A stretch of DNA of 64,000 nucleotides. Origin: an uncultured Francisella sp. (GTDB lineage: Bacteria > Pseudomonadota > Gammaproteobacteria > Thiomicrospirales > Thiomicrospiraceae). A program made the translations under genes and the position numbers. Location of the stretch: contig CAZBQD010000002.1 of NCBI GenBank assembly GCA_964493995.1, positions 20,901 to 84,900 of the forward strand, given 5' to 3'. The notes under the pieces are model-generated. The model did no database searches. It worked only from the letters and a program-made list of their open reading frames with translations, and was not told the origin of the DNA. This document shows positions 1 through 12,754 of this stretch, in pieces. Each line of letters begins with the position of its first letter. Position 1 is the first letter of the stretch.

Positions 1-1
1 A

Positions 2-1234
2 CGCATTGATAGCGCGCTACACGCCATTGAAGAAGCCAACGGCGCAAAGCTCACAGGCGTATTTCAGGGCATCAGCTTTAATACCGATAAGCTGGGCGAA
101 GAAAAACAGAAAAATGAAATCTTGCGCCACCTGCTAGAAGACTTTGCCTGCGATACCTTAGATCTGCGTCCGCACCGAATTGGCAAGCTCGACATTATTG
201 GTAACGCTTACGAGTTTCTGATTAAACACTTTGCCGCAACTTCGGGCAAGTCGGCAGGAGAATTTTATACCGCTCCAGAAGTGTCTGAGCTGCTTGCAAG
301 GGTGTTACAACCACAAGAAGGTGACCAGATTTGTGACCCGACTTGTGGCTCAGGCTCGTTATTGCTCAAATGTGCGAAACAGATTCAACAGCATTTTAAT
401 GGCTCGAAAAAATACGCGCTGTTTGGACAGGAAGCCATTGGTTCGACTTGGGCATTAGCGAAAATGAACATGTTCTTGCATGGCGAAGATAACCACCGCA
501 TTGAGTGGGGCGATACCATTCGCAACCCTAAGCTACAAGATAAAAACGGTGGACTATTGCATTTTGATGTGGTAACGGCTAATCCGCCTTTTTCGTTAGA
601 GAAGTGGGGGCATGAACATGCCGAACATGACCCTTGGGGACGTTTTGAGCGTGGCGTACCACCCAAAACCAAGGGTGATTATGCCTTTATTTTGCATATG
701 ATCGAAACGCTGAAACCACAAAGTGGGCGTATGGGCGTGGTTGTCCCGCATGGGGTGCTATTCCGTGGTTCGTCGGAAGGGGCGATTCGTACAAGGTTGA
801 TTGAAGAAAACCTGTTGGATGCGGTGATTGGACTGCCAGAAAAGTTGTTCTTCGGTACGGGTATTCCTGCCGCTATTTTGATTTTCAAAAAGCACAAAAC
901 AGACAATAGTGTTTTGTTTATCGATGCCAGCCGTGAGTACAAGTCGGAAAAGAATCAAAATAAACTCACCGACGACAACCTAAATAAAATCGTCAGCACC
1001 TACTTTGCTCGCCAAACGGTTGAAAAGTATGCTTACCTCGCCAGCTTAGACGAGATTAAAGATAATGACTACAACCTAAACATTCCGCGCTATGTCGATA
1101 CCTTTGAGGAAGAGGAAGAAATCGACCTGATGGCGGTGCGTAGCGAACGCATTGCCTTACAGGCAGAACTCAATGCGCTAGAAGCGCAAATGGAAGCTTA
1201 TTTGTTGGAATTGGGTTATGAGGCAAACGCATGA
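2..1234 (+). CDS. hsdM: Type I restriction-modification DNA methyltransferase subunit HsdM (5' end lies upstream of the window)
   Basis: The frame is open from nt 2. The translation has the SAM-binding motif DPTCGSGSLL and the N6-adenine catalytic motif NPPF (VVTANPPFS). hsdS and hsdR follow in the same operon. Confidence 0.9.
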   Translation, partial: RIDSALHAIEEANGAKLTGVFQGISFNTDKLGEEKQKNEILRHLLEDFACDTLDLRPHRIGKLDIIGNAYEFLIKHFAATSGKSAGEFYTAPEVSELLARVLQPQEGDQICDPTCGSGSLLLKCAKQIQQHFNGSKKYALFGQEAIGSTWALAKMNMFLHGEDNHRIEWGDTIRNPKLQDKNGGLLHFDVVTANPPFSLEKWGHEHAEHDPWGRFERGVPPKTKGDYAFILHMIETLKPQSGRMGVVVPHGVLFRGSSEGAIRTRLIEENLLDAVIGLPEKLFFGTGIPAAILIFKKHKTDNSVLFIDASREYKSEKNQNKLTDDNLNKIVSTYFARQTVEKYAYLASLDEIKDNDYNLNIPRYVDTFEEEEEIDLMAVRSERIALQAELNALEAQMEAYLLELGYEANA

Positions 1235-1977
1235 CATTCACGCAACTGGATCAACTTAAAGCACGGCTAGACGCTTATCGTCCGCTCGATGCCCATATTG
1301 TGCGAAACCTGCACGAGAATTTGGTTTTACAATGGACTTATCACAGTAATGCCATTGAAGGTAACACACTTACACTCAAAGAAACCAAGGTTGCGCTTGA
1401 GGGCATTACTATTGGTGGTAAAACACTGCGTGAGCATTTCGAGGTGATTAACCACAAAGAAGCGATTTTGATGGTTGAAGAGTTGGTGAGCCAACAAGCT
1501 CCGCTAACCGAGCGCGTGATTAAAGACTTGCATTATCTGGTGCTGAAAAACATTGACCAAGACAATGCAGGACGTTACCGACAGGTGAATGTGTTGATTT
1601 CGGGTGCAGAACATAAACCCGTCGATGCGCTTCATGTTCCTGAACAGATGACGACTTTTATCGACTGGTACGCCACACAAGCCGCTCACTTACATCCTGT
1701 TGAACGCGCGGCACGGGTGCATGGGGAGTTTGTGAAAATTCATCCGTTTGTTGATGGTAATGGACGCACTGCGCGATTATTGATGAATTTAGAATTGATG
1801 AAATCAGGTTTTCCTGCGGCAGTATTACCTGTCGAAAGCCGATTAGCCTATTACGAAGCCTTAGACACTGCGCATTGCAAAGGGGATTATGCGCCTTTTA
1901 TCGCCTTACTCTGCCAAGTCGTTGCCGATAGCTTTAAGCCTTACTGGTGGGCATTGGGGGTTGAAGATGTTGCCTGA
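1231..1977 (+). CDS. Fic family protein (class II, putative AMP-transferase) embedded in the type I R-M operon
   Basis: Canonical Fic motif HPFVDGNGRTARLL (nt 1741-1782). An N-terminal inhibitory-helix motif SNAIEG, of the form (S/T)xxxE(G/N), lies near nt 1345-1362. The start overlaps the hsdM stop as ATGA (1231-1234). Confidence 0.85.
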   Translation: MTFTQLDQLKARLDAYRPLDAHIVRNLHENLVLQWTYHSNAIEGNTLTLKETKVALEGITIGGKTLREHFEVINHKEAILMVEELVSQQAPLTERVIKDLHYLVLKNIDQDNAGRYRQVNVLISGAEHKPVDALHVPEQMTTFIDWYATQAAHLHPVERAARVHGEFVKIHPFVDGNGRTARLLMNLELMKSGFPAAVLPVESRLAYYEALDTAHCKGDYAPFIALLCQVVADSFKPYWWALGVEDVA

Positions 1978-3133
1978 GGGGTGGAAACGCATTCCAATTA
2001 AAGACGCTTGTGAATCAATCATTGATTGTGTAAATAAAACAGCTCCTGTTGTTGATTATGAAACTCCTTACAAAATGATTAGGACTACTAATGTTAGGCA
2101 CGGTCGTGTGGATGTAACTGATGTTCGATATGTTGCAAAGGAAACATACTTAGAGTGGACACGAAGAGGACTTCCTAAAAAAGGAGACATTATCTTCACT
2201 CGTGAAGCGCCTGTTGGCGAAGTAGGCGTTCTTGAAGATGATACTGGTGTTTTCCTTGGGCAAAGAACAATGATGTATCGTGCAGATAATAATAAAGCAA
2301 ATAATTATTATCTTTTTTACTCTTTATTAACTAAATTTTGCCAAAAACAAATTGAAGACTTTAGTAATGGTGGAACAGTTGCTCATATGAGAGTACCTGA
2401 TTGCGGTGAAATTTTAGTCAACTTACCCCCTCTCCCCGAACAAAAGAAAATCGCCCAAATCTTATCTACTTGGGATAAAGCCATCACCACCACCGAGCAA
2501 CTGATTGCCAATAGCCAACAGCAGAAAAAAGCCCTCATGAAACAACTGCTCACAGGCAAAAAACGCTTGCTTGATGATAACGGGGTTAGGTTTAGTGGGG
2601 AGTGGGAGCATTCAACTCTTAGAAATATACTGACGGTTTCTAAAGGTCAGCAACTTAATAAAGATACACTAGATTCAACAGGGCTTTATCCTGTAATTAA
2701 TGGCGGCATTACGCCATCAGGTTATACTGACCAGAAAAATAGGTCAGCAAATACAATTACCATTAGTGAAGGTGGTAATTCGTGTGGTTATGTAGCATTC
2801 CAGACAAAAGACTTTTGGTGTGGTGGGCATTGCTATTCTGCTACAAACTTAAAACTTAACCTACAGTTTACTTATCACTGTTTGAAATTTAATGAAAATA
2901 GAATCATGAAGTTAAGGGTTGGTTCTGGTTTGCCAAATATTCAGAAAAAAGACATTGATGGATTAGTAATTAAGTATCCTAACTGTCATATAGAACAACA
3001 AAAAATCGCTTCTGTTCTTTCCTCAGCAGATCGTGAAATTGAGGTGTTGCAAAGCAAGCTAACTGCACTCAAGCAAGAGAAAATATCCCTGATGCAACAG
3101 TTGTTGACAGGGAAACGGAGAGTTATTGTATGA
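1967..3133 (+). CDS. hsdS: Type I R-M specificity subunit HsdS
   Basis: Two variable target-recognition regions are separated by duplicated conserved helices (EQKKIAQILSTWDKAI...LMKQLLTGKKRL and EQQKIASVLSSADREI...LMQQLLTGKRRV). I chose the ATG at 1967 (MLPEGWKRIP) because the ORF-track start at 1889 lies inside fic. It overlaps the fic stop by 11 nt. Confidence 0.85.
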   Translation: MLPEGWKRIPIKDACESIIDCVNKTAPVVDYETPYKMIRTTNVRHGRVDVTDVRYVAKETYLEWTRRGLPKKGDIIFTREAPVGEVGVLEDDTGVFLGQRTMMYRADNNKANNYYLFYSLLTKFCQKQIEDFSNGGTVAHMRVPDCGEILVNLPPLPEQKKIAQILSTWDKAITTTEQLIANSQQQKKALMKQLLTGKKRLLDDNGVRFSGEWEHSTLRNILTVSKGQQLNKDTLDSTGLYPVINGGITPSGYTDQKNRSANTITISEGGNSCGYVAFQTKDFWCGGHCYSATNLKLNLQFTYHCLKFNENRIMKLRVGSGLPNIQKKDIDGLVIKYPNCHIEQQKIASVLSSADREIEVLQSKLTALKQEKISLMQQLLTGKRRVIV

Positions 3134-4494
3134 CTGTTAGCTTTAACTCAAGAGATGAGTTTCAACGCCAACCAATCGCTCAGAAGCTAATAAAACTATT
3201 GGCTAGTGATGTGAATGTTTCCCCTATGGTCATTGATGGGCCGTGGGGGTCAGGTAAAACTGAATTTACTCTTAAATTAATTGATCTTTTTCAGAATAAA
3301 GAGCCTTCCTTTAATTTAATTTACATTGATGCATTTAAGGCTGACCATGCCGATAATCCTTTAATGATGGTACTGGCAGAAATCATAAAACACCTTCCTG
3401 AAGAGCAGAAGGATTCAGTAATTGATAAAGCAATTCCTGCTATTCGCTCTCTTTCAAAAACCATAGCAAAAGCTGCAACAAGCTGGATTCTAAGGCAAGA
3501 CAGCGCAGATATTATTGAAGATTTTGAATCCGAGATTAAAGAGGCATCAGATAGCTTAATTGATTATTCTGTTGAACAGCTTCTGAAGTCTCACATTGAA
3601 GCCGATAAGAACTTAACAGCTTTGCAAAAATTACTAGAAGAAATTTCAAAAGACGAGCCAATAATACTATTTATTGATGAATTAGACCGATGCCGTCCAG
3701 ACTTCTCAGTTTCTACTCTAGAGACCATTAAGCATGTTTTCAATGTTCCAAATGTTCAATTCGTTTTGATTACAAATCAAAGCCAACTTTTGGCATCCGT
3801 TAAGCACATCTATGGTTCACAACTCGATGCAAAGCGTTATCTTGATAAGTTCCTCAGATTTTCATTTAAGTTATCCTCAACCGTTGGAACTAATAGCCAT
3901 AATCTACAACATGCGTCTGAGATTTATTTCAGCAATTTGATAGTTAAAAGCGATGTCTTAAAAGACAGTGTTTTTAGAGAGCAGGCTGGACGTGGAATTA
4001 TTGGATTTGGCATCGATTTAGTCAAAAATCATCACTTATCATTAAGAGAGGTTGAGACTTTTGTTCGCTACATTGAAATTTATCATACCCTTTCTGAAGG
4101 CTTTTCTAAGAACCTCATCTTGGGATATGGGTTACTTCGAGTAATAGGGGTTTTTATTTATTCTTTTGCAAGTGGATTTGCGAAAGAACTTGATAGAGAC
4201 ATTGTAAGTGGTTACAGCGTTAATGAATTCTTCGGAAAAACTGACCTTATTGACATTGAAAATACGAAACCGAAAAATTACATGCAAATAATTCATGCAA
4301 TGTTTGCGATGGAATTAAATATGCATTCTGATAGTTACGATAAATTCGAGAAGCCTTTACAGAATCTAAAACCAAATTGGAATGTTCATTTTGGTTCAAT
4401 GTTCAGCGGGAGTTTTCATTACTATGCTGACGAAGGTAATCTAATTCACGTAAAGTCAGCCATTCGTGAACTAATGATGCTTTCATGTAACTAG
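3130..4494 (+). CDS. KAP family P-loop NTPase
   Basis: Walker A GPWGSGKT (nt 3238-3261) and the KAP-type Walker B IILFIDELDRCRP (nt 3661-3699), with YLDKFLRFSF downstream. The start overlaps the hsdS stop as ATGA (3130-3133). No hydrophobic transmembrane insert is visible between Walker A and Walker B. Confidence 0.8.
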   Translation: MTVSFNSRDEFQRQPIAQKLIKLLASDVNVSPMVIDGPWGSGKTEFTLKLIDLFQNKEPSFNLIYIDAFKADHADNPLMMVLAEIIKHLPEEQKDSVIDKAIPAIRSLSKTIAKAATSWILRQDSADIIEDFESEIKEASDSLIDYSVEQLLKSHIEADKNLTALQKLLEEISKDEPIILFIDELDRCRPDFSVSTLETIKHVFNVPNVQFVLITNQSQLLASVKHIYGSQLDAKRYLDKFLRFSFKLSSTVGTNSHNLQHASEIYFSNLIVKSDVLKDSVFREQAGRGIIGFGIDLVKNHHLSLREVETFVRYIEIYHTLSEGFSKNLILGYGLLRVIGVFIYSFASGFAKELDRDIVSGYSVNEFFGKTDLIDIENTKPKNYMQIIHAMFAMELNMHSDSYDKFEKPLQNLKPNWNVHFGSMFSGSFHYYADEGNLIHVKSAIRELMMLSCN

Positions 4495-4504
4495 AAGTAG
4501 CCTT

Positions 4505-4597
4505 ATGACCCAACCCATCGCCCAATTCCACGAAGAAGTCGGTGAAAACTTGATGACAATTTGCAGCACCAACTTGGATCAATGCCATGTTAAATGA
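4505..4597 (+). pseudogene. Remnant of an hsdR 5' end (30-codon ORF, MTQPIAQFHEEV...)
   Basis: nt 4505-4544 match the true hsdR start at 6518-6557 at 38 of 40 positions. The first 12 codons are identical, then the sequences diverge and a stop occurs at 4595-4597. The remnant sits 10 nt after the KAP stop. Confidence 0.55.
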
Positions 4598-6521
4598 ATA
4601 CTCCGCCGAATCTTTGCTCGAGCAGCTCCGTGAACTGGATGAGCATCCTCGTCTTGAGGCGAAAAGCGGTTCACAAATAGGCGCATCGGTAATGCAAACC
4701 GTGTGTGCGTTCGCGAATGAGCCGAATTTAGGCGGTGGTTACTTGCTGTTGGGTGTCGAAGAACCAGATGAAGCACATGTTAAGTTTTGGATGTCTGGGT
4801 TGTCTGATACTGACAAGTTATTAAATGAATTGCAAAACAACTGCCGAGAACAGTTTGAGCAGCCGATTTCAGTTAAGGCAGAAGTAGCGACTTTAGAAGA
4901 TAAGCGCGTTATTTTAATTTATGTACCAGAGCTGGAGTCAGCTGCCAAACCTTGTACCTTTAAGGGTAAGTTTGATAGTAAAAACAAAAGAAAAACAGGG
5001 GTATGGCGTCGTGGCTTAAATGGCGATTATGAGTGTTCTCAGCAAGAGCTAACGCCGTTGTTATTAGCTAAAAATGGTGTGAGTTATGAGCAAGTTGTTC
5101 TCGATGATGCCGAAATGGACGACTTAGATGCCAGCGTGATCACCTTATACCGAAACCTTCGCGCTAAAGTATCGCCGCAGGCCGAGGAATTATTGGCCGA
5201 TGATTTAGAACTGTTACGTGCGTTGCAACTTATCAAGAAACAACATGGCGAATTCAAACCCACTATTGCGGGTCTGCTTTTATTTGGTAAGCCTTTGGCT
5301 TTACGTCGCTTATTACCAGCGGTACGCGTGGATTATATTCGAGTACATGGAACACAGTGGGTTGAAAATCCAGAACAACGGTTTGCCTATACTCAAGACT
5401 TTCGTCAACCCATTATTAGCTTGATCTCTAAACTTGAAGCCACTATTTTGGATGATATGCCGCGCTATTTTCGACTAAATGAAGGCGAAACACAGCGTTC
5501 GGATACACCTCTTCTCCCTCAAAGGGTGGTGCGTGAGGCTGTCGTCAATGCCTTGATGCACCGAGATTATTTTGTTAATCAGCCAACTTTGGTGGTTCGG
5601 TTTAGCAATCGATTAGAAATTCGTAACGCCGGTTATTCACTCAAACCAGAAAACCAGTTAGGGGAGATGGGTTCTAAGCTTCGCAATCCGATTTTGGCCT
5701 CGGTGTTGTATGATCTTAACTTTGCCGAGACCAAGGGTTCAGGAATTCGAACTATGCGACGCTTGTTGCATGAGGTTGGATTGAGTGCACCTGTGTTTGT
5801 GAATCATCAAATTGAAAATCAGTTCACATCAATCTATTTGTTGCATCAGTTGATGGGGGAAGATCAACTCACATGGCTTAAACAGTTTTCTCATTTGTGC
5901 TTGTCTGACGATGAAGCCAAGGCGTTGACCCTTGCGAAGGAAACAGGTGCAGTTGATAATGCGGCCTTAAGATCTATTACGGATCTTGATACGCTGGCGG
6001 CAAGCCGTGTTTTAACGAAGCTGACCCATCAAAAAGGGTTACTTATGCAGGGTGGTGCTGGTGCATCGACCTATTATCAGCTATCAGTGCTGTCGAATAT
6101 GCCGCTCTTTGATGTGGCAAATACGAGTGACCTAGAACCAAATACAGGTGACTTCGACTCAAATACAGGTGACTTCAACTCAAATACAGGTGAGCTAGAT
6201 GTTAATAGAGATGACCTACCAGAAGCATTGCACAATGCTATTAAAGAACTAACTCCTAAAGCAAGAAAAAACGTTTTATGGCCAATTATTATCTGGCTGT
6301 GTGCGCTAAGCCCTATGTCGGCTGACAAATTAGCACACATTATTGGCAGACAAATTAACGCATTAAAAGCAAGTCATCTAACTCAATTGAGAGAAAAAGA
6401 GGGCTACATTCAATATCTTTACCCAGAGGTCATCAATCATCCTGAACAGGCTTATATCTCAACAGAGTCTGGCAAGCAGTGGCTAAAACAGCAAACCATT
6501 TATAGTGATTCGAACTCATGA
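4587..6521 (+). CDS. AlbA_2 (Schlafen-like) domain plus HATPase_c_4 (RecG-like C-terminal) domain protein, putative nucleic-acid-binding ATPase or regulator
   Basis: The N-terminal signature EHPRLEAKSG...VCAFANEPNLGGGYLLLGVEE is typical of AlbA_2. The central REAVVNALMHRDYFVNQPTLVVRFSNRLEIRNAGY is typical of HATPase_c_4. The stop overlaps the hsdR start as ATGA (6518-6521). Confidence 0.7.
   Translation: MLNEYSAESLLEQLRELDEHPRLEAKSGSQIGASVMQTVCAFANEPNLGGGYLLLGVEEPDEAHVKFWMSGLSDTDKLLNELQNNCREQFEQPISVKAEVATLEDKRVILIYVPELESAAKPCTFKGKFDSKNKRKTGVWRRGLNGDYECSQQELTPLLLAKNGVSYEQVVLDDAEMDDLDASVITLYRNLRAKVSPQAEELLADDLELLRALQLIKKQHGEFKPTIAGLLLFGKPLALRRLLPAVRVDYIRVHGTQWVENPEQRFAYTQDFRQPIISLISKLEATILDDMPRYFRLNEGETQRSDTPLLPQRVVREAVVNALMHRDYFVNQPTLVVRFSNRLEIRNAGYSLKPENQLGEMGSKLRNPILASVLYDLNFAETKGSGIRTMRRLLHEVGLSAPVFVNHQIENQFTSIYLLHQLMGEDQLTWLKQFSHLCLSDDEAKALTLAKETGAVDNAALRSITDLDTLAASRVLTKLTHQKGLLMQGGAGASTYYQLSVLSNMPLFDVANTSDLEPNTGDFDSNTGDFNSNTGELDVNRDDLPEALHNAIKELTPKARKNVLWPIIIWLCALSPMSADKLAHIIGRQINALKASHLTQLREKEGYIQYLYPEVINHPEQAYISTESGKQWLKQQTIYSDSNS
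6120..6203 (+). repeat. In-frame 21-bp tandem repeat, 4 units, encoding NTSDLEP/NTGDFDS/NTGDFNS/NTGELDV
   Basis: Units 6141-6161 and 6162-6182 differ at one position. The flanking units are more diverged. The repeat lies in a linker of the AlbA_2 protein. Confidence 0.85.
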
Positions 6522-9500
6522 CACAACCCATCGCCCAATTCCACGAAGAAGTCAGTGCTAAACTGCCAGCCCTAACATTGCTAACCAATCTCGGTTATCA
6601 GTTTATCTCGCCACAACAAGCACTGGAAATGCGTGAGTCTTTATCATCGGTTGTGCTGGTCGATGTACTGCGCGAGGTATTGCAACAGAAGTCTATTGAT
6701 TTTCAGGGTAAGCGTTATCCCTTGTCCGATGCAGCCATTTACAACATTATTCATCAGCTCTCGCACCCTGCCATGAATGAAGGGTTACGCATTGCCAATG
6801 AAAAGCTGTATGACACCCTCACTTATGGCGTCAATATTACCGAATTTATCGAAGGTAAAAAGGTTCACGCCACCATTCAGCTCATCGACTGGGACGCACC
6901 GAGCAATAACCGCTTTCACTTCACCGAAGAGTTTGAGGTGCTCAATACGCACGGTATCGGCAAGCGTATCCCCGATATTGTCTGCTTTGTAAATGGCTTG
7001 CCTTGGGTGGTGATTGAAGCAAAGCGTCCCGATGCTTCACATACAGGCAAACCAACGGTTGAAGAAGGCATTTCGCAAAATATTCGCAACCAAAAAGTCG
7101 ATGAAATTCCGCATTTGTTTGCCTACGCCCAATTGTTATTAGCGGTGAATGGGCATGAAGGGCTATATGGAACTTGTGGCACACCTGCTAAGTTTTGGGC
7201 GAAGTGGAAAGAGGAACACATCAGCGAAGCCGACTTCTCGTCACTGAAAAACCAACGCCTAACGTCAGCACAACTAGAAACCATTTTTGCTCATCGAACG
7301 ACCAAGCAAAAACAAGATTATTTATCTTTGCTGGCGGGTGGTGAGTTATTGGTCACGGATCAGGATCGTTTGATTGTTGCCTTGCTAACCCCCGAACGAT
7401 TACTGGAAACGACACGCTTGTTTACGCTGTTCGATAAAAAGTCGGGTAAGATTGTCGCGCGTTATCAGCAGGTATTTGGCATTAAAGCCCTCGTTGAACG
7501 TATTTCAACCTTTGATGATAAAGGCGCACGTAATGGCGGAGTGATTTGGCATACCACAGGTTCGGGTAAGTCATTTACGATGGTATTTTTAGCCAAAGCG
7601 TTAATTTGGTTAGAAGCACTAGCCAAGTGCAGAGTGGTAGTGGTCACCGATAGAGTCGATTTAGAAGATCAACTGGCACGTACCTTTGCTTCAGGTGGGG
7701 CATTGTCGGATAAAGACAAAAAAGATGCCATGGCAACCACTGGCAAGCGTTTGGCAGAACAAATTGGTAAAGGTAACGAACGCATTATCTTCTCGATCAT
7801 TAATAAGTTTGGCACAGCAGTCGGTTTACCTGAGTGCTATAACGATAGCCCCGATATAATTGTACTGGTGGACGAAGGACACCGTAGCCAAAATGGTGAA
7901 AATAACATTCGGATGCAACAAGCCTTACCCAAAGCGGCTTTTGTTGCCTTTACAGGAACACCATTACTCAAAGACGACAAAACCGAGAATAAATTCGGGC
8001 AGATTCTTCATTCCTACACCATGCAACAAGCCGTTGCCGATGGTACGGTCACGCCCTTGTTGTATGAAGAGCGTATTCCCGAACTGAATACCAATGATGC
8101 AGCAATTGATGCGTGGTTTGATCGTATTTCGTCCCCCTTAAGCGATAAGCAAAAAAGTGACTTGAAGAAAAAGTTTGCGCAAAAAGGTCAGGTGTACCAA
8201 GCTGAAGGACGGATTGAACTGATCGCTTATGATATTTCTGATCACTTTCTGAACTTTAAGGCGTTAGGGTTAAAAGGGCAATTAGCCTGTGACTCTAAAG
8301 CCTCTGCTATTCGTTACAAGCAATTGCTGGATAAGATTGGTAAGGTGACATCGGTCGTCGCTATGTCGCCTCCCGATACACGCGAAGGACATGATGACAT
8401 AGACACAGAAAGCAGCGACTTGGTGCAAAACTGGTGGAAATCAAATGTCGGTTCGCAAGATGAAAAAGCTTATACCAAGAACATTATTGCCGCTTTTGCT
8501 AAAGAAGACGGTCCTGACCTTATGATTGTTGTCGATAAGTTGCTAACGGGCTTTGATGAACCTAAAAATACCGTTCTTTACATTGATAAACCGCTGAAAC
8601 AGCATAACCTGATTCAAGCCATTGCGCGTGTTAATCGCTTACACGCGCAAAAGCAATTTGGTTATTTGATTGATTACCGCGGCATTCTCAAGGAATTGGA
8701 TACCACCATTGCCGACTATCAAGATTTAGCCAAACGTACCCAAGGTGGTTTCGATATAGACGACTTAAAAGGTTTGTATCAGCAAATGGAAACGGAATAT
8801 AAGAAGCTTCCACGGTTATACAGCGAACTCTGGGCTGTATTTGCCGATGTGCGTAACAAGCAAGATGGTGCGGCATTGCGGGCGCATCTTGCACCCAAGA
8901 TGGACAATATTGATGGTCAGGTGGTCGATACAAATCTTAAAAAGCGTGATGATTTTTATGAAGCACTCACCAGCTTTACCAATGTGTTAAAAGTGGCATT
9001 GCAATCGGCGAGTTATTTTGACGATAAGAGCTTTGACAGTAAGCGGCAGGTGTATAAAGACACCTTAAAAATGATGGTGCAACTGCGTCAACAAGTACGC
9101 CAAGACGCCGAAGAAACAGTCGATTACGACCAATATGCTAACGACATTAAAGCATTACTTGATAAGCATATCGGTGGACTTAGGGTGTTAGAAGCGGAAG
9201 GGGTTTATCTGGTGGGTGATATGGGCATAAAAGTGCAACCCGACACCATGACAGATGAAGAGGCACGCAATAAGAAAGATGTCATTACAGGTCGTGTCAC
9301 GCGCATGATTGAACAGGACTTAGCTGATGATCCCTACGCTCAGGCTCATTTTTCTAAAATGTTGAAAGATGCCATTGAGCAAGCTAAAGCCATGTTCGAC
9401 GCACCTGTGAAGCAATATATGTTGTTTGCGGATTTTGAACAAAAAGTAAAAGACAGAAACGTCGAGGGCGTACCACAAGACAAGTTAGCAAAAATTGACC

Positions 9501-9787
9501 CATCAACCAAACGTCATGTACAGGCTTACTATGGCTTGTTTTTGAAGCATTACGAAGCGGGTTTACCGATTAGTGAAGAGAGCTGTTTTGACTATGCCAT
9601 TAAAATTGATGAAGTGGTACGAAAGTCGGTCGCTGAGTATTCCATCAATCCACAGGAAATTGAAAACCAAATTACCATTGGTCTGTTACCCCTATTGTTC
9701 CAAGACTTGGGTATCGAAAAGGCACAGGCGATCATTCACGATGTGATCAAAATTACCCGTTTAGGATTGGCGGGATACAGGGCATAA
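6518..9787 (+). CDS. hsdR: Type I restriction enzyme endonuclease/translocase subunit HsdR
   Basis: 1089 aa. Contains a PD-(D/E)xK-like nuclease motif PDIVCFVNGLPWVVIEAKRP, helicase motif I HTTGSGKSFT, and motif II VLVDEGHRSQ. Confidence 0.92.
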   Translation: MTQPIAQFHEEVSAKLPALTLLTNLGYQFISPQQALEMRESLSSVVLVDVLREVLQQKSIDFQGKRYPLSDAAIYNIIHQLSHPAMNEGLRIANEKLYDTLTYGVNITEFIEGKKVHATIQLIDWDAPSNNRFHFTEEFEVLNTHGIGKRIPDIVCFVNGLPWVVIEAKRPDASHTGKPTVEEGISQNIRNQKVDEIPHLFAYAQLLLAVNGHEGLYGTCGTPAKFWAKWKEEHISEADFSSLKNQRLTSAQLETIFAHRTTKQKQDYLSLLAGGELLVTDQDRLIVALLTPERLLETTRLFTLFDKKSGKIVARYQQVFGIKALVERISTFDDKGARNGGVIWHTTGSGKSFTMVFLAKALIWLEALAKCRVVVVTDRVDLEDQLARTFASGGALSDKDKKDAMATTGKRLAEQIGKGNERIIFSIINKFGTAVGLPECYNDSPDIIVLVDEGHRSQNGENNIRMQQALPKAAFVAFTGTPLLKDDKTENKFGQILHSYTMQQAVADGTVTPLLYEERIPELNTNDAAIDAWFDRISSPLSDKQKSDLKKKFAQKGQVYQAEGRIELIAYDISDHFLNFKALGLKGQLACDSKASAIRYKQLLDKIGKVTSVVAMSPPDTREGHDDIDTESSDLVQNWWKSNVGSQDEKAYTKNIIAAFAKEDGPDLMIVVDKLLTGFDEPKNTVLYIDKPLKQHNLIQAIARVNRLHAQKQFGYLIDYRGILKELDTTIADYQDLAKRTQGGFDIDDLKGLYQQMETEYKKLPRLYSELWAVFADVRNKQDGAALRAHLAPKMDNIDGQVVDTNLKKRDDFYEALTSFTNVLKVALQSASYFDDKSFDSKRQVYKDTLKMMVQLRQQVRQDAEETVDYDQYANDIKALLDKHIGGLRVLEAEGVYLVGDMGIKVQPDTMTDEEARNKKDVITGRVTRMIEQDLADDPYAQAHFSKMLKDAIEQAKAMFDAPVKQYMLFADFEQKVKDRNVEGVPQDKLAKIDPSTKRHVQAYYGLFLKHYEAGLPISEESCFDYAIKIDEVVRKSVAEYSINPQEIENQITIGLLPLLFQDLGIEKAQAIIHDVIKITRLGLAGYRA

Positions 9788-10533
9788 TGCAACAGCAATG
9801 TGAGTTATTCAGCTTCGTCTATGGTGAAGAAGCGATTCCGTATCGGGTGCTATGGTTGCCCGATCAGGCGGCTGAAAAGGTGAAGATTAAAGTCTACCCT
9901 AATGCAGAGGTGCTGGTTAATGCACCAGCACAAACCTCACCAGAACAGATTCATCAAGCTGTGATGAAACGTGCTCGGTGGATATGGCAGTCTGTCAGCA
10001 ACTTTCAGCAAAGCCGTGCTGATGTCACAGAAAAACATTATCAAAGTGGCGACATGATGTTTTACCTTGGTCGCCGCTATGTGCTCAAAGTGATGCAAAC
10101 TGATGACAAACCTAGGGTAAAATTGAACCAAGGACAGTTGCAAGTATACTTACCAGATAGCGAGCAACAGCGTCAACAGCAAGTAGAGCGTTTGGTCAAC
10201 CGATGGTATCGCCAGCAAGCCGAGCGTGTTTTTCGTGAACGTATTGAAGCGTTACTGTCACAAACTGATTGGGTAACAGAAGTGCCACCATTCAAGATCA
10301 TTTCTATGCAGAAACAATGGGGCAGTTGTTCTATTAAAGGTTGTTTAATGCTCAATCCGCATTTAATTAAAGCCGCTAAACCCTGTATCGATTATGTGAT
10401 TTTGCACGAACTATGTCACCTAGCCGAACACAATCATTCTGAGCGTTTCTGGAAGCTCCTAACCTTGGTTATGCCCAATTGGAAAGCACACAAGGCTAGG
10501 CTCGATGGGATGGCAGAGTTGTATCTTAAATAA
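9787..10533 (+). CDS. YgjP/DUF45-like (M48/WLM-type) zinc metallopeptidase
   Basis: HExxH motif in ILHELCHLAEHNHSERFW. The start overlaps the hsdR stop as TAATG (9785-9789). Confidence 0.8.
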   Translation: MQQQCELFSFVYGEEAIPYRVLWLPDQAAEKVKIKVYPNAEVLVNAPAQTSPEQIHQAVMKRARWIWQSVSNFQQSRADVTEKHYQSGDMMFYLGRRYVLKVMQTDDKPRVKLNQGQLQVYLPDSEQQRQQQVERLVNRWYRQQAERVFRERIEALLSQTDWVTEVPPFKIISMQKQWGSCSIKGCLMLNPHLIKAAKPCIDYVILHELCHLAEHNHSERFWKLLTLVMPNWKAHKARLDGMAELYLK

Positions 10534-10553
10534 TAACGCTGCAAAAATTTCAA

Positions 10554-11828
10554 TTAACGCGGATAGCGTTCTCCCTCTTGTGGCAATCGGTATTGATAAG
10601 GTTTGTTCGCTGATTCCGTAACGCTTTGCTTCACTTGACTCATTTGTTCTTTCAAACTCTGTTGCAATAGGCGTAATTCAGCCATTTCCTGACGCAAGCG
10701 CGTTAATTGATCCATAATCGGTTTGGTATCGACAACAGCCGTTACATTGGGGGTTGTTTTGCCTGTTTCAGCAGCGGGAGTAGGGAGTTTGGCCAAACGT
10801 GCTGCCAGTTTTTCATCCATTTGAGAAGCGACTTGTTGCCATTGCTGGTTTTGTGCTTGCGCTTGCGCAATGGCGTTTTGTTCCATTTGCTGCAACTGCT
10901 GACTCAACTGATCGACTTGCGTGAGCAATTGTTGCCAGGCTTCTGCAGAAGGGGCGGTCACTTTTGCCACAGTGGCATTATTGTTTTGCTGTACCGGCTC
11001 TGCTGGTGTAACGGCCGTCGTTGGTGCCAGAATTGGGCTGGGTGCGGGTGCCGCGTTAGGCGTCATAACCGGTGCTGAGGCGACGGTGTGATTGGCATCC
11101 GCCATCAGCGTAGGTTCAGTTGCGTTGTTTGCTTGAGTTGGCGTATCTTCTACCACTGACGCAACCACACCATCTTGTGGCGATTCGCTAGATGCAGTGG
11201 AAGGCGTCATGTCGATTTTGTTGAGCTTCATCTGCTCAATACTGGCTTGCATCTGCTCAATGGTACTGGCCAATTCATCCAGTTTGAGGGTCAGGGTTTT
11301 GCTGACAATCGTTTGATGTTCATCGACATTTTCTAAAATGGCGTTCGACATACTGACGAAGCTGGCACGACTTTGTAGCATCACGCCAATGGTCGTACCA
11401 AAGCCCGCAACCGCAATTAAGCCACTAATAAGCGTGAGAATAATGATGTTCTTCTTCGTCGCACTGACTTCTTGTACCGCTTGACGGGTGGCATGGCGCC
11501 AACCACTGGCGGCATCACTCAACTCTTTGATGCTTTCTTGTTGTTCTTTAGCCAGTTCAATATTTTTTCGCGTCGCTTCTTGTGACAGTTGCGTACCTTC
11601 GTGTAAGGCACGACTGGCTGCTTCAATGACATCTGCCCAGGTTTGCGAAGCTCGATGCGCCTCATCATGAGAAGGCTCAGGCTGCACCGCAGCGTGAACC
11701 ACCTTGGCTGAAGACAGCTCTTCCTGCGATGGCGCTTGCGACCCTTTCGCTAGGGGGGCAGATGCGAGATTCGTTTTAGGATTATCTAACAGATTATCTA
11801 AATCGTCTAAATAATTATGTGTGGACAA
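10554..11828 (-). CDS. Hypothetical membrane-anchored coiled-coil protein with an A/P/T/Q-rich low-complexity region
   Basis: 424-aa ORF with a single hydrophobic segment IIILTLISGLIAVAGFGTTIGVML. Heptad-like, Q-rich stretches flank it. I recognise no family motif. Confidence 0.5.
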   Translation of the reverse strand: MSTHNYLDDLDNLLDNPKTNLASAPLAKGSQAPSQEELSSAKVVHAAVQPEPSHDEAHRASQTWADVIEAASRALHEGTQLSQEATRKNIELAKEQQESIKELSDAASGWRHATRQAVQEVSATKKNIIILTLISGLIAVAGFGTTIGVMLQSRASFVSMSNAILENVDEHQTIVSKTLTLKLDELASTIEQMQASIEQMKLNKIDMTPSTASSESPQDGVVASVVEDTPTQANNATEPTLMADANHTVASAPVMTPNAAPAPSPILAPTTAVTPAEPVQQNNNATVAKVTAPSAEAWQQLLTQVDQLSQQLQQMEQNAIAQAQAQNQQWQQVASQMDEKLAARLAKLPTPAAETGKTTPNVTAVVDTKPIMDQLTRLRQEMAELRLLQQSLKEQMSQVKQSVTESANKPYQYRLPQEGERYPR

Positions 11829-11857
11829 GGGCGTACCCTCCTGTTTGGCGCGAGGCG

Positions 11858-12754
11858 TTAGAGACGAGACAATTCTTGACGAATTTTAGCGTTGCGCTGA
11901 CTGATGTCATCCGTTTTTTCGGCGACTTGTTGCGCTTTAATACGCCAATCGTCTTCTGTCCAGCCAAGCGTTTGCGGGGTTGCCAAGCTGGTACCCAAGG
12001 CGGCAGAAAGTTGCGCTAACTGTTTTTGTGGGCTGTTGGCTAGCTGTTCGGCCAGTTGTTGCTGTTGATTGGTTACTGTGTCTAGCAGCACATCTAATTG
12101 TGCCAGACTTTGTTGTGGACCCTTGTGTTCGCCTTCTTGGCGTAATTGCATCCAGTCTTGCAAGGCTTGAATGGCGTTCGCCACCACCGCTTGCAAATGT
12201 TCGGCAATCGGAGCTGTATCGCCAAGTGATGGTGTAATGGCATGATTCGCTGGAGTCTCACTCATCACTGGCTCTTCAACAATTTCTTCAGCCACTTCAT
12301 CAGTGATGGCTAGACCATCACATTCTTGACTATCGGCATCGCTCATATCATGGGTATCGGCTAAGTCTGCTGGTGGGAATTCTTCATCACTGGCTTGAGT
12401 GAATGTCGTTTCTAGGTCTTCATCAAAGCTCAGACCTGCCAGTTCATCCTGTTCTTCTAAGCTGTCTAAGCCTTCAAGCAGTTGCGTGGTCTCATCGTTA
12501 TCGGCCATTTCGAGCACTTCTGTGTCTGTTGTTTCGGCAAGCTCCATCGTCGATAAGGCTTCCAGTTCTTCATCGAATGTGGCCGAAGTTGGCGGTGTGT
12601 CACTGCTGCTTTCATCGAGCGTTAGGGTGTCGATCAGTTCCGTTTCATCGTGCGTTTCATCGGCAATGAGGACATCATCGACTTCGACGCCTTCAAACAT
12701 TTTTAACATTTCTTCTGTCGCTAAAGCGTCTTGATCTAGGTTTTCGTTCGACAT
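11858..12754 (-). CDS. Hypothetical highly acidic (D/E/T-rich) protein with a C-terminal coiled coil
   Basis: 298-aa ORF. The first ~160 aa are dominated by D/E/T/L. The C-terminus (QQQLAEQLANSPQKQLAQL...) looks helical. It lies directly upstream of 10554-11828 on the same strand. Confidence 0.5.
   Translation of the reverse strand: MSNENLDQDALATEEMLKMFEGVEVDDVLIADETHDETELIDTLTLDESSSDTPPTSATFDEELEALSTMELAETTDTEVLEMADNDETTQLLEGLDSLEEQDELAGLSFDEDLETTFTQASDEEFPPADLADTHDMSDADSQECDGLAITDEVAEEIVEEPVMSETPANHAITPSLGDTAPIAEHLQAVVANAIQALQDWMQLRQEGEHKGPQQSLAQLDVLLDTVTNQQQQLAEQLANSPQKQLAQLSAALGTSLATPQTLGWTEDDWRIKAQQVAEKTDDISQRNAKIRQELSRL

Follow-up and report, generated by a model that had tools for sequence, protein, structure and literature searches.

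A Schlafen-GHKL ATPase protein with two winged-helix units as cargo before hsdR in a type I restriction operon of an uncultured Francisella

The window analysed here comprises 64,000 nucleotides from an uncultured Francisella sp. (GenBank assembly GCA_964493995.1, contig CAZBQD010000002.1, positions 20,901 to 84,900) and opens with a type I restriction-modification (RM) operon in the order hsdM-Fic-hsdS-KAP NTPase-Slfn-hsdR-YgjP. All operon genes lie on one strand and their ends overlap or nearly abut. The subject of this report is the gene named Slfn, which the original prediction, made from the letters alone, had described as coding for a protein with AlbA_2 and HATPase_c_4 domains. This description holds: the open reading frame (ORF) is intact, starts with ATG and encodes 644 residues, and both Pfam matches exceed their curated cutoffs. 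With high confidence we assign Slfn as an intact member to the prokaryotic class of Schlafen-GHKL ATPase-helix-turn-helix (HTH) proteins, known as pSlfn-HisKinase-HTH or 'Schlatpase', carried as cargo in the slot between hsdS and hsdR. The gene, its parts and its downstream neighbour are the following.

4587-6521, forward strand: Slfn, coding for a Schlafen-GHKL protein with two winged helix-turn-helix (wHTH) units, 644 residues
4587-4976, forward strand: Schlafen/AlbA_2 nuclease domain, residues 1-130 (Pfam match)
4641-4643, 4656-4658, 4662-4664 and 4761-4763, forward strand: codons of the predicted catalytic residues E19, E24, K26 and E59; the CAFAN box is residues 40-44
5094-5846, forward strand: GHKL (Bergerat-fold) ATPase region, residues ~170-420 (HATPase_c_4 match)
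5535-5537 and 5547-5549, forward strand: codons of the key GHKL residues E317 and N321; further key residues are N347-x-G349 and G384-x-G386
5859-6086, forward strand: first winged-helix unit, residues 425-500 (AlphaFold2 secondary structure; MarR-type matches in Foldseek)
6093-6222, forward strand: low-confidence linker of NTGD(F/L)xS heptads encoded by 21-nt tandem repeats (repeat family D1, 6118-6222)
6222-6491, forward strand: second winged-helix unit, residues 546-635 (AlphaFold2 model; profile match to a PadR-family protein, 5h20, E 0.006)
6518-9787, forward strand: hsdR, restriction/translocase subunit, 1089 residues (TIGR00348, 7e-135; Pfam HSDR_N, SWI2_SNF2 and T1R_D3-like)

Residues 22-127 of Slfn matched the Pfam family SLFN_AlbA_2 (PF04326) with an E-value of 7e-14 and 52.8 bits against a curated cutoff of 25.3. 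The signature reads E19-HPRL-E24-A-K26 ... C40-AFAN-E45-PNLGGGYLLLGVEE59. Conservation was read from an alignment of 81 orthologs that are 55-79% identical. The catalytic residues expected of a Schlafen nuclease are conserved in it: E19, E24 and K26, which make up the E-x4-(E/D)-x-K motif, are each present in 81 of the 81 sequences and E59 in 80. The SAFAN-type box C40-A-F-A-N44 is followed by GGGYLLLGV, and C40, A41, N44, G50, G51 and G56 are invariant. The AlphaFold2 model of the N-domain (residues 1-165; pLDDT 86, pTM 0.84) was compared with the PDB by Foldseek. The only significant matches were 2kyy, SLFN13, 3lmm, SLFN11 and the SAMD9 tRNase, with E-values of 9e-6 for rat SLFN13 N' (5yd0), 5e-4 for human SLFN11 (9erd) and 1e-3 for SAMD9 (9o0d, TM 0.56); SLFN5 was also among the fold-search matches of the protein.

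Sequence profiles of the full-length protein and of the N-domain gave no significant Schlafen match in the PDB (E 0.4-0.5), and the link to the Schlafens therefore rests on Pfam, the motifs and the fold search. The weak profile alignment with SLFN13 was used only to place E59. It sets GVE-E59 on GVD-D of SLFN13 (chain residue 261). From its spacing of 38 residues to the glutamate of EFK, we take this SLFN13 residue to be the third catalytic, metal-binding acid, D248 in the numbering of Yang et al. 2018, with E59 as its likely counterpart. NCBIfam contained no model matching Slfn. Taken together, sequence and model show the N-domain to be a true nuclease domain of the Schlafen type, its predicted catalytic residues intact.

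The second Pfam match, HATPase_c_4 (PF13749), covers residues 337-409 with an E-value of 3.6e-14 and 53 bits against a cutoff of 26. E317, N321, N347, G349, G384 and G386 are found in all 81 orthologs. E317-x3-N321 matches the Mg-ATP pair E314/N318 of RzAgo, a SLFN-pAgo protein, and the SLFN-pAgo model of PADLOC aligns over residues 30-404 with 2e-24. The whole Schlafen plus GHKL module is therefore homologous to that of RzAgo. Foldseek with the full-length model matched DIP2311 (3lmm) with an E-value of 2e-19 and had histidine-kinase catalytic domains among its matches.

The C-terminal half had been suspected to be wHTH-like, and the AlphaFold2 model indeed has two winged-helix units there, with MarR/TrmBL2-type wHTH matches in Foldseek besides the PadR-type profile match. 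The linker that separates them has a pLDDT below 50 at residues 503-540. Its heptads, NT(G/S)D(L/F)xx within residues 503-545, vary from 0 to 6 copies across the 81 orthologs. A weak profile match (E 0.09-0.13) connects the linker to fragments of trimeric autotransporter adhesins (PDB 2wpr/2wpq), constructs of the SadA coiled coil in which Asn occupies position d, and the heptads might be an oligomerisation element. The last winged-helix unit (residues 578-636, 6320-6494) resembles the domain at the C-terminal end of the Fic protein 4rgl (E 0.003), and the operon itself contains a Fic gene.

The conserved residues bear on a second suggestion of the original prediction, that Slfn is a DNA-binding regulator of the operon. 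It would control hsdR in the manner of a C protein, with an AlbA_2 domain that binds nucleic acid and is not catalytic. Two wHTH domains would suit such a role, chained translation with hsdR could delay restriction, and an older COG description speaks of a 'transcriptional regulator with HTH and Schlafen-like domain'. On the other hand, all or nearly all of the 81 orthologs retain the residues of the catalytic triad, K26 and those that bind Mg-ATP, none of which a repressor needs. C proteins have roughly 80-100 residues; where a controller of this type would be a small HTH protein, Slfn is far larger, with 644 residues and conserved enzymatic sites. Furthermore, sister operons run without Slfn and orphan copies have no operon to control, as described below. 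A pure operon repressor is unlikely, and we regard regulation of any C-protein-like kind as very improbable.

The class itself is well populated. HisKinase fusions with or without HTH account for 53% of prokaryotic Schlafens (PMC13056530), and 60,692 proteins were counted as 'Schlatpase' plus HTH (bioRxiv 10.64898/2026.05.29.728809). The class has been linked to RM, BREX and type I CRISPR loci (PMC13462974, Cluster 7; PMC12839542), and Poribacteria were shown to have a stand-alone Schlatpase in one of their type I RM operons (bioRxiv 10.64898/2026.05.29.728809). Under each of its names, pSlfn-HisKinase-HTH, Schlatpase plus HTH or Cluster 7 of the Cash paper, it has the same order of Schlafen, PF13749 GHKL and C-terminal HTH as Slfn and the same Ex4(E/D)xK, SAFAN and E-x3-N motifs. 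Class and RM linkage were thus already reported in 2026, and the Slfn of the window is a good example of them, not a new one. The literature searched contained no mention of a site directly before hsdR with ATGA overlap, of an hsdR-derived leader or of a second wHTH with heptad linker, and no paper linking Schlafens specifically to hsdR.

Among relatives of the class, RorSlfn5 (PMC13056530), Cash (PMC13462974) and RzAgo (bioRxiv 10.64898/2026.05.29.728809) are proven phage-triggered tRNases, and for all three the Ex4(E/D)xK motif and tRNase activity have been demonstrated. In RzAgo, binding of ATP to the GHKL domain leads to a tetramer with active tRNase geometry (bioRxiv 10.64898/2026.05.29.728809). 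Slfn and RzAgo are homologous across Schlafen and GHKL, but the sensor of RzAgo is an Argonaute core with guide RNA, while Slfn has two wHTH domains instead; its trigger must therefore differ. The N-domains of mammalian SLFN11, SLFN13 and SLFN5 and the SAMD9 tRNase have the same catalytic-lobe fold, acidic residues and SAFAN box. Unlike the mammalian Schlafens, Slfn has the catalytic lobe only, joined to a GHKL ATPase rather than to an SF1 helicase domain. Among known structures, DIP2311 matches Slfn over the full length and the 'RecG-related' 2kyy, an orthologous N-domain, matches the N-domain with 38% identity and a TM of 0.73; 3lmm and 2kyy are both structural-genomics entries with no assigned function.

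The stop codon of Slfn (TGA, 6519-6521) overlaps the start codon of hsdR (ATG, 6518-6520), which confirms the ATGA overlap reported before, and we infer from it that the two genes are translationally coupled. The hsdR product matched the PADLOC model REase_I with an E-value of 0 and 1305.9 bits; its relationship to EcoR124I, a type IC enzyme, is remote. To place this arrangement among relatives we used 31 loci outside the window, gathered through Slfn homology and designated by L numbers; the DNA downstream of Slfn was readable in 27. In 22 of these 27, hsdR and YgjP come next after Slfn or are separated from it by one or two cargo genes. In two more loci, hsdM and hsdS precede Slfn and the sequence ends before hsdR would be reached. 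Five loci are orphans among housekeeping genes, three of them intact (L006, L007 and L029) and two decayed. The intact orphans, of 652-680 residues, adjoin genes for a LodA-type lysine oxidase and flavin halogenase-like proteins (L006:9989-15277, L029:1216-6613); those in L006 and L007 are from Pseudomonas. ATGA or GTGA coupling to hsdR recurs in L008-L012, L018 and L032, and the two genes as called in L035 share 4 nt. A metagenome scan for Slfn returned only 10 loci, all with 65-69% identity and many of nearly the same lineage.

Carriers of Slfn include Legionella pneumophila, Vibrio cholerae and Edwardsiella tarda, where the gene is on integrative elements. These three offer cultured organisms for tests of the coupling between Slfn and hsdR. 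Other cargo found beside Slfn comprises Fic, KAP, SIR2 with HerA, RhuM, DUF4917, DUF6933 with PDDEXK_4, and SLATT. In a Methyloprofundus metagenome-assembled genome (L004:7049-9875), genes for a SIR2-like protein and a HerA-type ATPase are found between hsdS and the leader-Slfn cassette, an apparent SIR2-HerA defence pair within the hsdS-hsdR slot.

Sampling independent of Slfn also turned up sister operons that lack it. The closest relative of the window's KAP gene is in L039, where KAP and hsdM are 85% identical at the protein level and KAP has the same position in the operon. The order there is hsdM-hsdS-KAP-[hsdR remnant]-Abi_2-hsdR, with no Slfn. Three plasmid operons with an HsdR 76-77% identical to that of the window all do without Slfn as well: their hsdS-hsdR interval is empty in Proteus, contains two GTPases and a PD-(D/E)XK protein in V. 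alginolyticus, and contains an ATP-binding protein and a small ORF in plasmid pAQU1. A search of plasmids with Slfn returned no close Slfn, only relatives below 30% identity. Therefore, the backbone of this family is hsdM-hsdS-[slot]-hsdR-YgjP, and Slfn is one recurrent, exchangeable cargo. The notion that Slfn-hsdR forms a constant core which KAP joined as a newcomer, derived from GC content and synteny, was dropped as a general claim in view of L039 and the plasmid operons.

Exchange is also visible in the relation of Slfn to its HsdR. Between the window and L018 or L019, the Slfn proteins share 78-80% identity and the HsdRs only about 60%. With L032 and L028 the reverse is seen, i.e. HsdR is 79-80% and Slfn only 67-72% identical. 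The phylogenies of Slfn and HsdR are discordant.

The original prediction had reported a duplicated hsdR 5' end upstream of Slfn and read it as a trace of the entry of a discrete cassette.

4502-4544, forward strand: direct repeat copy 1, which duplicates the hsdR 5' end upstream of Slfn; 40 of its 43 nt agree with 6515-6557
6515-6557, forward strand: direct repeat copy 2, the true hsdR start (repeat search)
4505-4597, forward strand: leader ORF of 30 codons (MTQPIAQFHEEVGENLMTICSTNLDQCHVK, then stop), hsdR codons 1-12 plus spacer

The duplication is real, and no other pair of direct repeats within the 2.5-kb region is as long as this one of 43 nt. Yet it is not a bare scar, for it opens the leader ORF, which starts with the ATG at 4505 and has its stop at 4595-4597. 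The leader overlaps Slfn by 11 nt from the Slfn ATG, its stop lying 8-10 nt after that ATG. L004, L018 and L019 (30 codons each) and L033 (40 codons, with hsdR codons 1-20 kept) have homologous leaders ahead of Slfn, and those of the window and of these four loci all end at the same TGA. The leader is confined to the Slfn subclade at least 77% identical to the window's (five lineages, 77-88% identical). In sequence type (MTQPIAQFHEEV) it agrees with the N-terminus of the window-type HsdR, an N-terminus also found in L032 and L039, and it accompanies Slfn even where the resident HsdR starts differently, as in L018 (MNVVPKFQEEY). The two repeat copies in the window are 93% identical, compared with about 72% (our own count) between leaders of different genomes, a difference that speaks for exchange with the resident hsdR by recombination or gene conversion.

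By blastn, 3068-4544 of the window corresponds to 1996-3475 of L039 at 84.6% identity, from the 3' end of hsdS through KAP, and the match stops exactly at the end of the repeat at 4544. In L039 (3436-4990; ENA ERZ27252164 k141_307670) there follows a 138-codon ORF that opens with about 60 hsdR codons, then Abi_2, then hsdR. Here the hsdR 5' duplication measures 174 nt at 90% identity; the stop of the remnant ORF overlaps the Abi_2 ATG as ATGA and the stop of Abi_2 overlaps the hsdR start. The Abi_2 cassette is an independent case of the same insertion signature as that of Slfn. The earlier view of a cassette is thus supported as far as discreteness goes, because L039 has Abi_2 in the place of Slfn and the plasmid operons lack Slfn. 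It does not hold as a recent or unique event, since the leader is common to five Slfn lineages and the coupling to hsdR recurs in distant relatives.

These features are consistent with the following course of events. A cassette of spacer, Slfn and the first hsdR codons would have been spliced into an hsdR already present, at a point within its 5' end. Cassettes located directly before hsdR in a donor would be copied along with the hsdR start, in a process resembling homology-facilitated illegitimate recombination. The truncated hsdR start left upstream may persist as a translated short leader ORF, and translation would be chained from leader to Slfn to HsdR through successive stop/start overlaps. 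The leader could then act as an hsdR-like left homology arm that allows the cassette to move between related operons. Slfn and Abi_2 are two independent cassettes at one hsdR 5' site, each with a duplicated hsdR start as a coupled leader ORF, and the duplications give an initial hint, at the level of sequence, of the way in which restriction operons acquire embedded defence genes. Payne et al. 2024 (bioRxiv 10.1101/2024.01.29.577857) describe same-strand cargo nested in type I RM, BREX and DISARM loci like that seen here, and the KAP and Fic genes of the window correspond to their PDC-S20 and PDC-S04; the passages searched contain no insertion mechanism and no hsdR 5' duplication. The Slfn class is absent from the PDC models of PADLOC v2. 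What the locus adds to the known class is the conserved coupling of Slfn to hsdR, its cultured carriers and the hsdR 5' duplication with leader ORF. A more far-reaching version takes the hsdR 5' end as a dedicated landing pad for defence cassettes. The truncated resident start would be reused as a translated leader, the newcomer would be expressed in a fixed chain with HsdR and have homology arms for further exchange, and Slfn would be a tRNase that fires according to the state of HsdR. This would, if true, explain why no construct of this class of Schlafens gave protection when tested alone, but we consider it doubtful.

As to function, the best explanation of the whole, which we hold with middling confidence, is that Slfn is a cargo Schlatpase acting as an ATP-gated tRNase in an abortive infection tied to the type I enzyme. 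By analogy with characterised relatives, ATP binding at the GHKL domain would cause oligomerisation, which in turn would bring single-lobe Schlafen domains together to form a tRNA endonuclease that is active and depends on metal. Cleavage of tRNA would stop translation and thereby back up restriction by abortive infection. Sensing or oligomerisation is probably the task of the two wHTH units and the heptad linker. The trigger we favour is the failure or inhibition of restriction, or else the DNA products of the type I enzyme. No other kind of prokaryotic Schlafen is as common as the Slfn-GHKL-HTH proteins, which make up about half of the catalogue. For this large group, the locus and its relatives suggest a candidate partner, the HsdR of the YgjP-linked type I family.

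We favour a functional tie to the type I enzyme over a free-standing sensor, by analogy from the position of the gene and the precedent of PrrC. In the EcoprrI operon (hsdM-hsdS-prrC-hsdR), PrrC is likewise a tRNA nuclease, as Slfn is predicted to be, with an NTPase domain and a gene between hsdS and hsdR, and it is the model for backup firing when restriction is blocked. The folds are unrelated, PrrC consisting of an ABC ATPase and a nuclease domain of its own and Slfn of Schlafen and GHKL domains; a PADLOC scan of the window gave no match to a PrrC or RloC model. A PrrC-like guard, in which HsdR holds Slfn in check, is plausible on the basis of gene position. HsdR is probably not an obligate antitoxin, because intact orphans exist and Slfn has been shuffled against HsdRs about 60% identical to each other. 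Autoinhibition that is intrinsic to Slfn appears more likely.

Several points weigh against the favoured explanation. The intact orphans L006, L007 and L029 are among metabolic genes with no hsd genes nearby. The same Slfn clade is found beside HsdRs only ~60% identical, so that, judged by sequence, contact with HsdR must be loose or absent. PrrC occurs almost solely within type I RM loci, whereas intact orphans of Slfn exist. Slfn is linked in 81% of loci, beside three intact and two decayed orphans; nearly all loci were drawn through Slfn, and this percentage does not tell how often the RM family has Slfn. Seven pSlfn constructs were assayed alone in E. coli, HisKinase fusions included, and only the DUF262 and Ig-like fusions protected (PMC13056530). 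No member of the pSlfn-HisKinase-HTH class, close orthologs included, has been shown in the literature to defend or to cleave RNA. The chance that the ~15 free leader codons stay open in four lineages was crudely estimated at about 0.06, and the statistics thus speak only weakly for the leader being selected as an ORF. Finally, a promoter and terminator scan of 1-11000 returned no more sites than shuffled sequence and adds nothing.

Some of these observations would be expected of a serious rival, in which Slfn is an autonomous abortive-infection sensor that hitch-hikes in the operon. Its wHTH units and linker would sense a phage component and tRNA would be cut without input from the type I enzyme, the embedding serving co-transfer and co-expression only. 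Intact orphans without hsd genes fit this account, as do a cassette that is exchangeable and discordant with HsdR and the unrelated cargo in the same slot (KAP, Abi_2, SIR2-HerA, RhuM, GTPases). RorSlfn5 and other pSlfns are self-contained sensor-effectors (PMC13056530), and selfish embedding was proposed by Payne et al. 2024. The same assays of PMC13056530 speak against autonomy, however, as no HisKinase-type construct tested alone protected. Moreover, Slfn is nearly always the last gene before hsdR and coupled to it even where other cargo is present, which is more specific than random embedding. We rate the autonomous sensor as possible and behind a tie to the type I enzyme.

A further alternative keeps the connection to restriction and changes the substrate. 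The Schlafen domain would act at DNA ends or stalled HsdR complexes and add to the destruction of DNA. The authors of the Cash study speculate that RM-linked Schlafens sense DNA-cleavage structures (PMC13462974), SLFN11 binds single-stranded DNA, and Slfn has wHTH domains. All characterised Schlafen-domain nucleases cut tRNA or rRNA, though; RorSlfn5 induces no SOS response, and the closest fold matches of Slfn are tRNases. An accessory role on DNA is accordingly improbable, and cleavage of tRNA is the preferred activity.

The other genes of the operon are as follows.

2-1234, forward strand: hsdM, type I methylase (Pfam N6_Mtase, 9e-108), open to the window edge
1231-1977, forward strand: Fic-domain cargo gene between hsdM and hsdS (Pfam Fic, 2e-24; PADLOC PDC-S04, 3e-40, and SoFic, 1e-33)
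1967-3133, forward strand: hsdS, specificity subunit (Pfam Methylase_S, 1e-45); GC 0.38 and GC at third codon positions (GC3) 0.31, a composition outlier of low GC
3130-4494, forward strand: KAP-family P-loop NTPase cargo gene (Pfam KAP_NTPase, 1e-49; PADLOC candidate PDC-S20, 3.6e-159); GC 0.36
9787-10533, forward strand: YgjP/SprT-like zinc metallopeptidase (Pfam YgjP-like, 4e-57)

A truncation of hsdM was considered and rejected, as its reading frame is free of stops from base 2 and the gene is merely cut by the window edge. The Fic gene, PDC-S04 or SoFic-like, overlaps hsdM by ATGA; elsewhere the hsdM-hsdS slot has a Fic remnant (L016) or a Bro-N gene (L004). KAP and hsdS have a GC content of 0.36-0.38 (GC3 0.31) versus 0.44-0.47 for hsdM, Fic, Slfn, hsdR and YgjP, which suggests a different history of the hsdS-KAP block from that of the rest of the operon. 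YgjP comes after hsdR in every locus with readable DNA downstream of hsdR, with or without Slfn, and seems to belong to this type I family as an invariable fifth gene. A gene of ~200 residues that resembles half of hsdS is found just upstream of hsdM in four loci (L018:5551-6141, L035:4446-5048, L037:5605-6204 and L045:5574-6170). An Rfam scan of the whole window gave no match. Directly after the operon, on the reverse strand at 10554-12754, there are two long ORFs of 424 and 298 residues with no Pfam match on record in contig L001; their products are of low complexity, acidic or rich in Gln and Ala.

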